Assembly (NCBI GenBank): GCA_963719225.1 | Contig: CAVRAY010000001.1 | Coordinates: forward strand, 288,001-352,000 | Direction: 5' to 3' | DNA from: Thermoanaerobaculia bacterium | GTDB lineage: Bacteria > Acidobacteriota > Thermoanaerobaculia > UBA5066 | DNA: 64,000 nt | Part shown: positions 1,546-11,548 of the stretch, one piece after another | How the letters are laid out: each line of letters begins with the position of its first letter | Position numbering within the stretch: position 1 is the stretch's first letter | Notes under the pieces: generated by a model | Database searches by the model: none | Told to the model about the DNA's origin: nothing | Seen by the model: the letters and a program-made list of their open reading frames with translations, nothing else | Made by a program: the position numbers and the translations under genes

Positions 1546-2268
1546 CTACCTGCGGTTTCCGAAGAGCCTGAGCATCATCAGGAAAAGGTTGATGAAGTCG
1601 AGATAGAGGGCGAGCGCGCCGGAAATCGCTCCGCGCCGGCCCGCTTCGGAGCCGCCGTCCACCTCGGCCGCCATCATCTTGAGCCTGCGCGTGTCGTAGG
1701 CCGTGAGGCCGACGAAGACGATGACGCCGACACAGCTCACGACGAAGCCGAGCATGTCGGACCTGAGGAAGATGTTCACGACGGACGCGATGATCACGCC
1801 GATGAGCCCCATGAAGGCGAAGGAGCCGAGGCCGTCGAGGGTCCGGTGCGTCGTGAGGCCGTAGACGCTCATGGCCGCGAACGTGCCCGCCGCGACGAGG
1901 AACGTCGAGGCGATGGAGCCCGTCGTGAACGCGAAGAAGATGACCGAGAGCGTGACGCCGTTCAGGGCGGAGTAGAGGAGAAAAACGGCCGAAGCCGCGA
2001 CGGACGAGAGCTTCCCGACGAGGCCGGACAGCCAGACGACGAGTCCGAGCTCGGCGAACAAGAGCCCGTAGAACACGAGCTTGTTCCCGAAGACGGCGCG
2101 GAGGACGGTCTCGTTCGAAACGGTGAAGAGGGCGGCGCCGGCCGTGACGAGAAGGCCCGTCGCCATCCAGCCGTAGACGCGGGCGAGGAAGCCCGACACC
2201 ACGAGTGATCCGGACGGGCTGATCGGGCGCGGCGAATCGAACGGTCGCGGCGGAAGCTCGGTGGGCAT
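1546..2268 (-). CDS. Bax inhibitor-1/YccA family membrane protein
   Basis: About 7 TM segments; LTAYDT and ALALYLDFINLF motifs. Confidence 0.95.
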   Translation of the reverse strand: MPTELPPRPFDSPRPISPSGSLVVSGFLARVYGWMATGLLVTAGAALFTVSNETVLRAVFGNKLVFYGLLFAELGLVVWLSGLVGKLSSVAASAVFLLYSALNGVTLSVIFFAFTTGSIASTFLVAAGTFAAMSVYGLTTHRTLDGLGSFAFMGLIGVIIASVVNIFLRSDMLGFVVSCVGVIVFVGLTAYDTRRLKMMAAEVDGGSEAGRRGAISGALALYLDFINLFLMMLRLFGNRR

Positions 2269-2324
2269 TTAGGGATCTCCTCTCGAACCTCCATCCTAAC
2301 GCGCCGGGGCTAAGATTCATTCCC

Positions 2325-2780
2325 ATGAAACGAATCGCACCCTCTCTCCTGCTCCTCCTGCCGCTCTGTCTTCTCGGCGCCGCCGGGAAGGCCGGCAAGT
2401 TCGGCGCGCCGCTCGGCGACGCGCCGAAGGTCGCGCTCGCCGACCTCGTGAAGGATCCCGCGATCTGGTCCGGCAAGACCGTGAAGACCGAAGGGGTCGT
2501 CTCGGCCGTCTGCCAGGGTTCGGGCTGCTGGATGACCTTGAAGTCGGGCGACACGTCCGTTCGCATCACGTTCAAGAGCTACGGCTTCTTCGTCCCGATC
2601 GATTCCGCCGGCGCCACCGCGGTCATGGAAGGAGTCTTCAGCGTGAAGACGATCCCCGAGGCGACCGCAAAGCACTACGCCGGAGAGACTCCAGGCGGCA
2701 AGCCCGACGCCATCAAAGGCGACCAGAAGGAGCTGAGCTTCGTCGCGTCCGGGGTCGAGCTCGCGCGGCCGAGGCGGTAG
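2325..2780 (+). CDS. DUF4920-type exported protein (OB-fold-like)
   Basis: Signal peptide; VCQxxGCWM and FKxYGFFVP motifs. Confidence 0.85.
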   Translation: MKRIAPSLLLLLPLCLLGAAGKAGKFGAPLGDAPKVALADLVKDPAIWSGKTVKTEGVVSAVCQGSGCWMTLKSGDTSVRITFKSYGFFVPIDSAGATAVMEGVFSVKTIPEATAKHYAGETPGGKPDAIKGDQKELSFVASGVELARPRR

Positions 2781-2902
2781 ACTTTGAGCAGAGAAGTCTT
2801 CCTCGAAAAAGCTTCTAATTGCAGAAACCAAAAAGCTTCTACCTGCAGAAGCTTCAACCGCCAAGCCGGGAGGAAGTTTCTGCTAATAGAAACCTCCTCC
2901 GA

Positions 2903-2921
2903 GGCCTAATACTAGTTAGAC
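2903..2921 (+). mobile_element. Integron attI-like recombination site
   Basis: GGCCTAATACTAGTTAGAC resembles the attI simple site (CCTAA..GTTRRRY). The core GTTAGAC (2915-2921) is the exact complement of the downstream attC R'' GTCTAAC. Confidence 0.6.
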
Positions 2922-2995
2922 GACCGAATGGGAGGGAAGAACCGCGGCATAGCGTCCGTCGTCTTCCGCCACCAGAGTTCTCGAGGTACTCAATC

Positions 2996-3367
2996 ATGGA
3001 CATGTCTATGATGGCGGTTGACGTCGACGGCACGCTTGGGAGCCCTCTTATCCTCGTACTGGTTCTCCTTTACGCAACGGGTTTGGCTGCCTTAACCGCA
3101 ACGTTCGTCTTGCTGTGGTTGCGGGGCGGAAGCAGTCGCCTCATGGCCGCGGTCATGGCGTTGTTATTTGTCCTGGCGTGCGTGTTCAACGTCGCAGCGG
3201 TTCGCGCCATCGCTGCGGCAATCATCGCGTTCCCGACGCGTGAGGGAGTACACGTAGGCGTGGGCTTTTTCGGAAGCCACCCCTCGTGGCTGGCTCCGGC
3301 GCTCGGTATTGCAGCAGGCCTGCTCGTGTCGGCTCGTATCCGCCGAGTCAGGGCGGCGGTCGTCTAA
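2996..3367 (+). CDS. Integron cassette 1 ORF, hypothetical membrane protein (about 3 TM)
   Basis: Lower GC than its flanks; ATG at 2996; the stop TAA (3365-3367) lies inside the attC R'' box GTCTAAC, as is typical of cassettes. Confidence 0.7.
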   Translation: MDMSMMAVDVDGTLGSPLILVLVLLYATGLAALTATFVLLWLRGGSSRLMAAVMALLFVLACVFNVAAVRAIAAAIIAFPTREGVHVGVGFFGSHPSWLAPALGIAAGLLVSARIRRVRAAVV

Positions 3368-3421
3368 CAACGCGCTGCAGCGGACTCGCTACGCTCGCCG
3401 CTGAGCTTGATATCGTTAGGC
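3362..3421 (+). mobile_element. Integron attC site (59-base element), 60 bp
   Basis: R'' GTCTAAC, 5-bp spacer, L'' GCTGCAGC ... L' GCTGAGC (L'' has the extra unpaired G), R' GTTAGGC; inner arms CAGCGG/CCGCTG. Confidence 0.9.
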
Positions 3422-3460
3422 AGCAAACACCTTGCGTGTTGCCAAAGAGGGAGGGTCGCC

Positions 3461-3940
3461 ATGAGCCTGAAGTCGGGAGCGTTGTTGCTGGTGCTTTGTT
3501 TACTGCGGGCAACGGAAGTCGTCGGTCAGGAAGCCGTCACCGCACTTGACCGTACTCTCTCGAAGACCCACATGCGACAACACATCACTTCCGTCGCGAT
3601 CGCCGACGCGCCAGTGCAAGCATTCGCTCCGACGACGATTCAGTGCGGAAAGCAGAGTTGCACGGTGAGGGTTGAGGTCTCCAGCCAGTTTTTCAACGTC
3701 ACTTCCGGAAACGCCGTTAGACTGCATGTCAAAGCGGATGGCGCCCCCTTCCCAGTCACAGGATTTGAAATCGATGGCGGAATCAACAGACCGGTGGCGC
3801 ATCTCACCACGGTGTCATCACTGAAGAGCGATCTCAGTCCTGGACCACACACCATTTCGGTGGACTTCGACATGCGATCGCCGGGTGGCAAAGCGGAGGC
3901 ATCCATTCGTACATTGACCATTCAAGTGTTTACTCCTTGA
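3461..3940 (+). CDS. Integron cassette 2 ORF, hypothetical secreted beta-rich protein
   Basis: RBS GGAGGG before ATG 3461; signal peptide; lower GC; flanked by the attC1 R' box and a second R'' box. Confidence 0.75.
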   Translation: MSLKSGALLLVLCLLRATEVVGQEAVTALDRTLSKTHMRQHITSVAIADAPVQAFAPTTIQCGKQSCTVRVEVSSQFFNVTSGNAVRLHVKADGAPFPVTGFEIDGGINRPVAHLTTVSSLKSDLSPGPHTISVDFDMRSPGGKAEASIRTLTIQVFTP

Positions 3941-3962
3941 ATAATTTAGAAATCGCAGTGCT

Positions 3963-3989
3963 GTCTAACAACGCGGAGCGGCGGACTCG
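3963..3989 (+). mobile_element. Degenerate attC (left half only)
   Basis: GTCTAACAACGCGGAGCGGCGGACTCG matches the first 27 nt of attC1 at 24 of 27 positions; no L'/GTTRRRY partner found. Confidence 0.7.
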
Positions 3990-4089
3990 GCAGTGGCTAC
4001 CCCGAGCAAGGTGGTGGCAGGTTGCCCTCGCAGTGCCCCCGGGGGCAAGGCGCAAGAGAAGCTGAAGGACGCGGCCCCTTCGCTCACGC

Positions 4090-4722
4090 ATGAATAGAAG
4101 GACCATCCTCGTCACCGCTGCGGTCGTCCTCGTCCTCCTGCTGGGGATGTCGGGGCTTCGCCCGCATGACCGGCTCACGTGGGTGCTCGAGGTGTTCCCG
4201 ATCGTGATCGTGCTTCCGGTCCTCTTCCTCACCTATCGCCGCTTTCCGCTGACGACGCTGCTCTATGCGCTGATCTTCGTCCATGCCGTCGTCCTCATGA
4301 TCGGCGGTCATCACACGTACGCCCGCGTCCCTTTCGGTTTCGCCCTCGCCAGGGCTTTCGGCCTGCACCGGAATCCCTACGACAAGATCGGTCATTTCTT
4401 TCAGGGCTTCGTGCCCGCGATCGCGATCCGGGAAGTTCTCGTTCGCGGCCGCTACGTCCGAACGCGCGGCATGCTCGCGTTCGTCGTGATCTCGATCGTC
4501 CTCGCCATCAGCGCCGCGTACGAGCTTTTCGAGTGGGCGTCGGCGGTCGCGCTCGGCCAGGGCGCAGAGGACTTCCTCGGCACGCAGGGCGATCCCTGGG
4601 ACACGCAGTCCGACATGTTGATGGCCCTCGTCGGCGGGGGCGTCGCCCTGCTCGGCCTCGGACGAACTCACGACCGGCAAATCAGCGCCCTTCAGGAGAG
4701 CGATCACCTGCAATTTCGATGA
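4090..4722 (+). CDS. DUF2238/YjdF family inner membrane protein
   Basis: GGHHTYARVP, RNPYDKIGHF, FLGTQGDPWDTQSDM. Confidence 0.92.
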   Translation: MNRRTILVTAAVVLVLLLGMSGLRPHDRLTWVLEVFPIVIVLPVLFLTYRRFPLTTLLYALIFVHAVVLMIGGHHTYARVPFGFALARAFGLHRNPYDKIGHFFQGFVPAIAIREVLVRGRYVRTRGMLAFVVISIVLAISAAYELFEWASAVALGQGAEDFLGTQGDPWDTQSDMLMALVGGGVALLGLGRTHDRQISALQESDHLQFR

Positions 4723-9961: not shown

Positions 9962-11548
9962 TCAGCGCAAACCAAACGGCGCGCCCCGAATTCGCGCGTA
10001 CATCGTGTCGAAGACCTTCAACGTCTTCAAATTCGGGACACCATCAGTGTAAGTCGGATCGCCAAGATACAGAACCCGGTTGTCCTGAGACGTGAATTCT
10101 GGCCAGCGGGGAAGCCCGGCGCCGTTCGGACTTCCTGACTTAGCGAAGTTCGTCCAATAGCGCGACATGACGTCCGCCAGTCTCCTGTCGGCCGTGCTCC
10201 AGCGCCAATGCTCCTGGTCAAGATGATCGAACATATACCAGAGCTCGGCGTAGTGGCTCGCTCCCCAGCCTTCATGAACCGATTCCTTTGGAAATGGCGG
10301 CTTGTGCACAAAATGATAGTAATACACGGGGTTTTTGCCCCTCGTGGCCTGCAGCCGTGCCCACGCCCACATGTCCCATCCAAAGCGAAGGTCGCGTTCG
10401 AAATCGAGGCGCGCCTTCACCGCCTCTTCATCGGTGGTATGCGGATACGCGTCAAGGAGCTGCTGCGGAAGGGGACCCCATCGCTTCGTGATCCCCTCAG
10501 AGAAGCTCGAGGCGGTGACTGAGTTCAGGTCGGGGACGAGCGCACGGGCTTCGTTGGCATTCGACCCGATGAGAATTGATACATCGTGTTGCCGGCCTCC
10601 CGCAAATGCGTCATAAGGCGATTCAGGCAGCACATAGGGCTCGATCACAGGATGCGAAAGGGCCCCCACCTTCCCTGTGAGAAGGTCGCTTGCTGGCAGC
10701 GCGCGCATTTCGGCGACAGAATGCACAGGCAGCGAGGCGGCGTAGGCCTCTCCCTCGCATTCGGCGTTCGCGAGCAGAAACTTTGGCGCTAGCTGGAGGG
10801 GCTCGAACAATCCACCGCTTTGCGCGATGGCCCGTTCGAATAGACCTTTGGCGAGTGGCGACGCCATCAGGACGCTGACCGATATCGCTCCCGCGGACTG
10901 TCCGAAGATCGTCACGCGTCCAGGATCGCCACCGAACGCCCGAATGTTGCGCTGAATCCATCGGAGTGCTGCGATCTGATCCAGCAGGCCGTAGTTTCCG
11001 GAAGTGTGGTGCGGCGACTCGCGGGTCAGGTCCGGATGGGCGAGGAAACCAAATGTCCCGAGCCTGTAAGAGAAGGTGACGACGATTACGCCCTTGCGGG
11101 CCAGGCGGTCGCCCCAATAGAGCGGCATGGACGCCGAGCCGCTGGAAAAGCCTCCCCCATGAACCCAGACCATCACCGGGAGGCGCGCATGGGCGTTTTG
11201 GGCGGGCGTCCAGATGTTCAGGTAAAGGCAATCTTCGCTGATGGCCGGCGGTGTTTCGCCAGGCATGGAGACGCCGTTCTGCATACAGGCGGCCGCAAAC
11301 GCTTCCGCTTTGCGCACGTCGTTCCACGGATTGACACTCTGAGGCTCGCGCCAGCGCAGCAAGCGGACTGGCGGAGCCGCGAAGGGAATTCCCTTGTAGA
11401 CAGTCAGAGGACCGGTCCGAACGCCCCTAACGAGACCGGCATCGGTCTGCACAGCATCCGCGAGGGTTGGCAGCGGGGCCAGCATCAAAGCAGTCATTAG
11501 AGCCGCTGTAGGTATCAAGGTCTCACCTTCGGTGCGAACGGATTTCAT
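9962..11548 (-). CDS. Type-B carboxylesterase (PnbA-like), secreted
   Basis: KGIPFAAPP, SEDCLYLNIW, HGGGF, GNYGLLDQ, FGQSAG (catalytic Ser). The real start at 11548 overlaps the upstream stop (TGATG); the track ORF is over-extended. Confidence 0.93.
   Translation of the reverse strand: MKSVRTEGETLIPTAALMTALMLAPLPTLADAVQTDAGLVRGVRTGPLTVYKGIPFAAPPVRLLRWREPQSVNPWNDVRKAEAFAAACMQNGVSMPGETPPAISEDCLYLNIWTPAQNAHARLPVMVWVHGGGFSSGSASMPLYWGDRLARKGVIVVTFSYRLGTFGFLAHPDLTRESPHHTSGNYGLLDQIAALRWIQRNIRAFGGDPGRVTIFGQSAGAISVSVLMASPLAKGLFERAIAQSGGLFEPLQLAPKFLLANAECEGEAYAASLPVHSVAEMRALPASDLLTGKVGALSHPVIEPYVLPESPYDAFAGGRQHDVSILIGSNANEARALVPDLNSVTASSFSEGITKRWGPLPQQLLDAYPHTTDEEAVKARLDFERDLRFGWDMWAWARLQATRGKNPVYYYHFVHKPPFPKESVHEGWGASHYAELWYMFDHLDQEHWRWSTADRRLADVMSRYWTNFAKSGSPNGAGLPRWPEFTSQDNRVLYLGDPTYTDGVPNLKTLKVFDTMYARIRGAPFGLR

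Follow-up and report, generated by a model that had tools for sequence, protein, structure and literature searches.

The integron integrase IntI integrates circular gene cassettes at attI through the folded bottom strand of attC. Arrays without an integrase occur about as often as complete integrons. They are interpreted as remnants in decay, in part because attI sites cannot be recognized beyond the clinical classes. In the available text of the reports that define them, half of the CALINs lie in IntI-encoding replicons and their cassettes may be excised in trans (PMC4889954, PMC9024848), and these arrays are treated as degraded or as trans-mobilisable donors (PMC4889954, PMC9024848, PMC9668308, 10.1101/2025.06.18.660453). 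As far as the accessible literature describes it, IntegronFinder detects no attI beyond classes 1–3, and attI detection is stated to be confined to class 1; attI-headed orphan arrays are therefore invisible to this program. In the parts of the published texts available to us, with supplements outside the scope, we found no report of several attI sites per genome served by one integrase, or of an attI without intI.

The array described here lies in a window of 64 kb (the whole stretch of DNA analysed). It has no intI nearby, as a CALIN does not, and holds one complete attC and one half site; because a CALIN requires at least two attC sites, the label given to the array by an earlier, sequence-only reading does not formally fit. 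Nor is it the isolated cassette without another att site nearby that defines a SALIN or attG insertion, as an attI is present, and this attI has no adjacent intI of the kind that a complete integron has.

An attI module heads the window array

The array opens with a module of leader and core (2801..2921, + strand) that lacks intI and accessory gene. In the core (2904..2921, +), an L box (2904–2910) and an R box (2915–2921) are separated by a 4-bp spacer; the core spacer of attI1 is 5 bp. The R box is the GTTAGAC core that the sequence-only reading had placed at 2915, and L and R boxes with a G/TT crossover head the array, as expected of an attI. The crossover is fixed between 2915 and 2916 by a homologue of the first cassette gene (ORF1; 67%) in an array of a congener (G008), whose first bases, immediately after an attC, are the same.

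The module aligns without gaps to the intI-linked attI of G008, with 104 of 121 positions identical, an identity similar to that of the DUF4920 genes of the two genomes (301/360), and an orthologue is present in a second congener, G027. The 12-bp attI core (2906–2917) has three copies in the genome (0.0005 expected by chance): at the window site, about 1 kb downstream of intI and at C1:2196758. Each copy stands at the head of a cassette array with attC sites, so that the window site is tied to intI-adjacent sites both through G008 and through the core that it shares with this genome's own intI-linked site. Judged by these alignments, what had been called an attI-like site is a true attI of this lineage. 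In G008, the homology begins within the tail of the small accessory gene, and the window module therefore looks like a platform cut down to its attI. The sequence-only reading had proposed a search of the genome for further copies of 2806–2921; the core is repeated, and the window leader shares 52% identity with the leader of the genome's intI-linked site, which is the level of shuffled sequences.

Two gene cassettes follow the attI

Both ORFs behind the crossover are integron gene cassettes, with the same boundaries in other arrays. Cassette 1 (2916..3415, +) consists of ORF1 (2996–3367, +), which encodes a hydrophobic, likely membrane protein of 123 aa and has its stop within R″ (3362–3368), and of attC1, a complete 60-bp site on the − strand (3362..3421; R″ 3362–3368, L″ 3374–3381, L′ 3400–3406, R′ 3415–3421). 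Cassette 2 (3416..3989, +) consists of ORF2 (3461–3940, +; 159 aa) and of a broken attC2, of which the left half is left (3963..3989, +), with R″ intact, L″ mutated and the right half lost. The coordinates that the sequence-only reading had given for the R box, ORF1, attC1, ORF2 and the second R″ (3963) all hold.

Our own attC covariance model, as distinct from that of IntegronFinder, was built on 16 sites taken from other genomes; its independence as a test is incomplete, because some of its rows belong to the same attC family. The sequence-only reading had staked its case on a match of this kind at the 60-bp site, and attC1 scored 63.7 bits on the bottom strand (E = 5e-13) versus 20 bits on the top strand, with the next-best place in the 64-kb window at 14.8 bits. 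attC2 had no match to the model. The covariation in the attC family was reached in 0 of 500 shuffles, and the free folding energy of attC1 within the array was not above that of shuffles (z = 0.43). attC1 belongs to the genome's own attC family and is identical at 58 of 58 positions to a site in the array at C1:2197791. The second remnant led by GTCTAAC is recognizable as the left half of such a site, with 24 of 27 positions identical to attC1. The predicted complementarity between the first core and R″ of attC1 is exact, with the start of cassette 1 matching the R″ flank at 12 of 12 positions in a 12-mer pair that occurs once in the genome; cassette 2 closes with 10 of 11.

ORF1 had four relatives among 1,379 candidates, and neither ORF gave anything over the cut-off against Pfam and NCBIfam. 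Relatives of ORF2 were found at 68 metagenome loci. At the 36 loci inspected, the start base is nearly always the same, behind very different attC sites; a strict start pattern was matched in 25 of the 36 and a downstream R″ in 22. Most of the metagenome copies (L156–L191) carry another attC family, and those in the window (3963–3989) and at L168 carry the family of the genus, an attC replacement on an unchanged ORF2 cassette. The ORF2 structure model (pLDDT 83; best fold match Z 12.4, rmsd 2.3, 118 residues) predicts an N-terminal hydrophobic helix followed by a TNF/C1q-like jelly roll, a likeness of fold that shows no function.

Flanking genes and transcription

Upstream of the attI lies the host gene DUF4920 (2325..2780, +; PF16267, 73.8 bits) and downstream of the cassettes lies a DUF2238 gene (4090..4722, +; PF09997, 193 bits). 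The lower G+C content that first drew attention to the block between 2781 and 4030 was confirmed (57% versus 67% for the window), and the GC3 values of the two ORFs, 0.71 and 0.62, compare with 0.82–0.89 for four neighbours. A second lower-GC patch (59.5%) is located at 10001–11000 of the window, over a carboxylesterase-like gene. The flanks had been taken for housekeeping genes, a description that does not suit them: DUF4920/DUF2238 is a variable spot in the genus, and the interval from DUF4920 to a TonB-receptor gene is highly variable. No + strand terminator or sigma-70 promoter was found between DUF4920 and the attI, and a scan for sites of the sigma-70 type returned none in 2200–4200. DUF4920 is the likely source of read-through transcription into the cassettes. 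Reads of this organism were found in no public sequencing run: the best share of searched words was 0.15, and six RNA runs gave 0.05–0.07.

One distant integrase and three arrays

The genome (G000; two contigs, 97% complete) encodes one IntI over the TIGR02249 cut-off, at C1:1115046–1115984, 824 kb from the window site. Its frame is open and the catalytic and I2-region motifs are present, so that the genome-wide search for intI proposed earlier ended in a single intact, distant enzyme. As the sequence-only reading had stated, the window holds no tyrosine recombinase; all six PF00589 matches in the genome lie elsewhere, and IntI and the accessory protein as queries detected no remnant within the window. 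Three attI-headed arrays sharing one attC family make up the set, with intI at one only, and all 16 attC-model matches in the genome (150 candidates scored) fall within them. The attI at C1:2196758 heads a 14-kb array without intI. The window array has no cassette in common with the other two; only insertion sequences are shared between arrays.

The sequence-only reading had expected intI to lie divergently upstream of attI. The arrangement in this lineage is another: intI lies upstream of attI in the same orientation, and a small gene stands between the two. In the genome's integron, and in the intI loci with a visible core or attC, intI runs in the direction of the cassettes, with attI on its 3′ side. 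This is the inverted-integrase organization, of which there is reportedly an example in Treponema.

Several further features of the genome were recorded. The second orphan attI is interrupted within its third leader box by an insertion sequence with about nine genome copies (C1:2195400–2196735), which splits leader from core. At least two kinds of 1.5-kb insertion sequences, which may be IS110/IS1111-like, occupy attC sites (C1:1107833–1112942 and 2198825–2210165), one kind being present in both large arrays. Solitary attC halves lie outside the three arrays at C1:1555641, 1680929 and 2621492 and at C2:544366. Behind nuoI (C1:2590545–2592045), where many congeners have an orphan attI, there are fragmented cassette-like genes and no core; this stretch is probably a fossil array. 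The cumulative GC skew of C1 peaks near 2.0 Mb and, so read, the window array is oriented opposite to the two large arrays with respect to replication, in the orientation that lowers excision.

Turnover at the DUF4920 locus in relatives

Among 18 congener stretches at the DUF4920 locus, one (G027) has the attI. G012 has an attC remnant with cassette-like genes, and in G011 DUF4920 is directly followed by DUF2238. An intI or accessory-gene remnant was found in none of 20 relative stretches at the locus. In G027, which was found by synteny and not by motif, the orthologous site is followed by two other leading cassettes and then by the ORF2 cassette. The comparison of the DUF4920–DUF2238 interval that the sequence-only reading had called for returned both other leading cassettes and an empty form, and no relative was found that carries the two ORFs here without att sites.

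Between the window and G027, four-fold sites differ at 8 of 90 in ORF2 and at 22 of 62 in DUF4920 (p = 1e-4), from which we conclude that the ORF2 cassette is younger at the locus than the split of the hosts. An ORF2 tree neither joined the two copies as sisters nor separated them. Evidence from closer relatives comes from single low-depth contigs of mixed samples. In run X1 (depth 3.9), one contig of 546 bases matches DUF4920 and the complete attI at 93–95% identity, with 13 differences in 270 bases and 34 in 497, and continues after 2919, four bases past the crossover, with 49 unrelated bases. Runs X2 and X3 show an empty join, from 2780 or 2778 to 4106; the leader is absent from the empty alleles. 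With at least three different first cassettes at the locus, relatives differ in their cassettes behind the window attI, starting at the crossover base. Because a close relative has a different cassette at the exact junction, the distant IntI likely still swaps cassettes here.

Leader boxes and a small accessory gene

The leader contains three 20-bp quasi-palindromes, assigned no strand: box 1 at 2810..2829, box 2 at 2834..2853 (24 bp after box 1) and box 3 at 2875..2894 (41 bp after box 2 and 9 bp before the L box). With a matrix built from other genomes, they rank first to third genome-wide, and the 9-bp gap from box 3 to the L box is the same at the genome's two other attI sites. A dimeric helper protein probably binds at these boxes, and the product of the accessory gene is possibly that protein. 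LexA boxes were considered as the identity of the repeats and rejected, as no matrix match above 12 bits was found upstream of lexA or recA.

At the intI loci of the genus, the small accessory gene, of about 110–135 codons, stands between intI and attI. Copies were seen in this genome at C1:1114178–1114513 (−) and C1:2194983–2195312 (+), and at loci L054, L055 and L104; a YdeI/OmdA-associated gene (PF13376; C1:1114547–1115040, −) stands between intI and the small gene in G000. The protein has invariant P-G-x-x-G-T and R-Y-R-like motifs and two small domains. Its full-length second copy matched no family in Pfam or NCBIfam, and its Atlas neighbours were unnamed at 0.92, with DUF5710 at 0.78 as a lead only. 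The structure model has a pLDDT of 88.7 but a pTM of 0.54, and a fold search with it returned no DNA-binding fold (best Z 4.8). Some intI-less attI sites are also preceded by the gene, and the leader type tracks its sequence type. Across eight intI-linked loci, leader similarity rises with the identity of the accessory protein (rho 0.63) but not with that of IntI (rho 0.07), in 28 pairs that are not independent; because the tail of the accessory gene overlaps the leader, physical linkage explains this covariation equally well. The accessory type that matches the window leader, as in G008 and G019, was not found in this genome, in which the best copy reaches 43–46%.

Orphan attI sites across the genus

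Of 29 genomes of the genus, 18 contain the exact core, with 35 occurrences in all; it was found in none of 32 other genomes, and a reversed control gave no occurrence. A pattern scan of genome contigs produced seven matches in unrelated taxa, which were taken as chance. Exactly one intI is present in 20 of 28 congeners, and intI was found at three different loci (in 8, 7 and 1 genomes). We examined 37 attI sites in the genus, a census that favours conserved sites because most were found by the exact core: 8 are linked to intI, 9 have the accessory gene only and 20 stand alone, which leaves 29 without intI. As a raw count without control, 13 of the 20 stand-alone sites lie at most 350 bp from the stop of a co-directional long frame. 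Counted by synteny, the core is recognizable behind nuoI in 11 of 26 genomes (6 exact, 5 variant) and intI in none, and behind an ABC-binding gene 8 of 24 genomes have the accessory gene and attI without intI, one has intI and several are empty or decayed.

No pair among the 37 first cassettes aligns, and at 19 of the 29 intI-less sites the first cassette closes with at most one mismatch in 11. In six congeners that carry attI cores, no intI was found at E ≤ 1e-60; four of them, G012, G013, G017 and G020, are 94–98% complete and have one to several cores. Intact-looking orphan sites can therefore exist without any integrase.

Discussion

We consider it likely that the window carries a stand-alone attI with two cassettes, a working satellite site recombined in trans by a single distant IntI. 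Such a satellite site had been suggested by the sequence-only reading: the attI and its satellite character are supported by homology, by the one distant IntI and by the differing cassettes, and service in trans is what we infer from them. The module would derive from a platform of intI, accessory gene and attI from which all sequence as far as the accessory gene's tail was lost. As a diffusible protein, IntI would integrate circular cassettes at the window site (attI × attC bottom strand) and excise them; as integration takes place at attI, the first cassette of an integron is the youngest. The cassettes would probably be read from the upstream DUF4920 transcript instead of a Pc promoter, and the trailer cassette may be in the course of being fixed through decay of its attC. 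At present the site may not be in use, since the matching accessory type was not found in the genome.

The same locus could be a relic, in which a complete integron behind DUF4920 lost its intI and the differences between relatives reflect differential loss from a longer array, with no new capture. We regard this as unlikely. It accords with G028, in which intI is present at a locus that in other genomes holds accessory gene and attI only, with the broken attC2, with G012, which keeps only an attC remnant at the DUF4920 locus, and with the description of CALINs as degraded integrons in the available text of PMC9024848; however, the locus is free of intI and accessory remnants in the 20 relative stretches, divergence in cassette 2 is far below that of the host gene, and differential loss sits poorly with at least three different first cassettes at the locus and a core that is identical across loci. 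Capture might instead be episodic or now dormant, because it needs an accessory protein fitting the leader boxes and the matching platform is missing from this genome, and the covariation of leader and accessory protein, the missing accessory type and the several congeners without intI point in that direction. Linkage through the overlapping gene tail explains the covariation as well, the fold search gave no DNA-binding fold, and the swap in X1 took place within about 5–7% divergence, all of which makes a dormant site quite improbable.

Two further explanations place the origin of the array outside capture at this attI. The high variability of the interval from DUF4920 to the TonB-receptor gene would suit a block of attI and cassettes that moves by homologous recombination in the flanking genes after the cassettes were captured elsewhere, as would a window leader that is closer to the non-orthologous G008 site (83%) than to the G027 orthologue (76%). 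The X1 contig breaks exactly behind the crossover and not in a flank, and as no relative has intI at the locus, capture would still be in trans; we give such a transfer very little weight. According to the available text of 10.1101/2022.09.11.507474, IntI inserts at secondary genomic (attG) sites, which may explain small CALINs and SALINs, so that cassettes might have landed at an attG whose likeness to attI is due to chance. The 121 bp of homology to an intI-linked attI refutes this, the leader is missing from the empty alleles and the core is expected 0.0005 times by chance, and the reading is barely credible. A XerCD-type module, suggested by the short core spacer, was rejected, as the partners are ordinary attC sites.

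Beyond the satellite site that we favour, the genus may harbour a distributed integron in which one integrase serves several attI sites that are fixed behind expressed host genes and capture separately, the intI/accessory module moves between loci or is replaced, and the small protein is a dedicated cofactor that binds three phased 20-bp boxes and chooses attI sites; this broader model is tentative and on the doubtful side. If orphan attI sites still capture cassettes, one enzyme would provide a cell with several first positions, each under another host promoter, and many arrays counted as CALINs or SALINs would be live platforms. The genus offers a defined test set, in which the core is short and conserved, orthologous sites differ in their first cassettes and one gene is a candidate helper.

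Compared with described systems, the window array shares with CALINs (Cury et al. 2016, PMC4889954; Neron et al. 2022, PMC9024848) the attC cassettes without an integrase nearby; in the available text of these papers CALINs are donors or degraded arrays, whereas a full attI heads the window array and appears to accept cassettes. It shares with SALINs (Loot et al., 10.1101/2022.09.11.507474) one complete attC and no integrase, but its cassettes are inserted at a conserved attI, which has a 100-bp leader and is used again at fixed loci, and not at scattered positions as the accessible part of that study describes for attG. The Xanthomonas CALINs (10.1101/2025.06.18.660453) are likewise integrase-less arrays at positions conserved across species; as far as the available text goes, they are explained by ancestral activity and no attI is reported at their head. 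The inverted-integrase sedentary chromosomal integron, as presented in the available text of PMC3575428, has a co-directional intI with attI on its 3′ side, as does the integron of this genome, which differs in the small gene between intI and attI, the 4-bp core spacer and the extra attI copies over the chromosome. The window site would be filed as a SALIN or a small CALIN and fails both definitions; it works like the attI of a sedentary integron.
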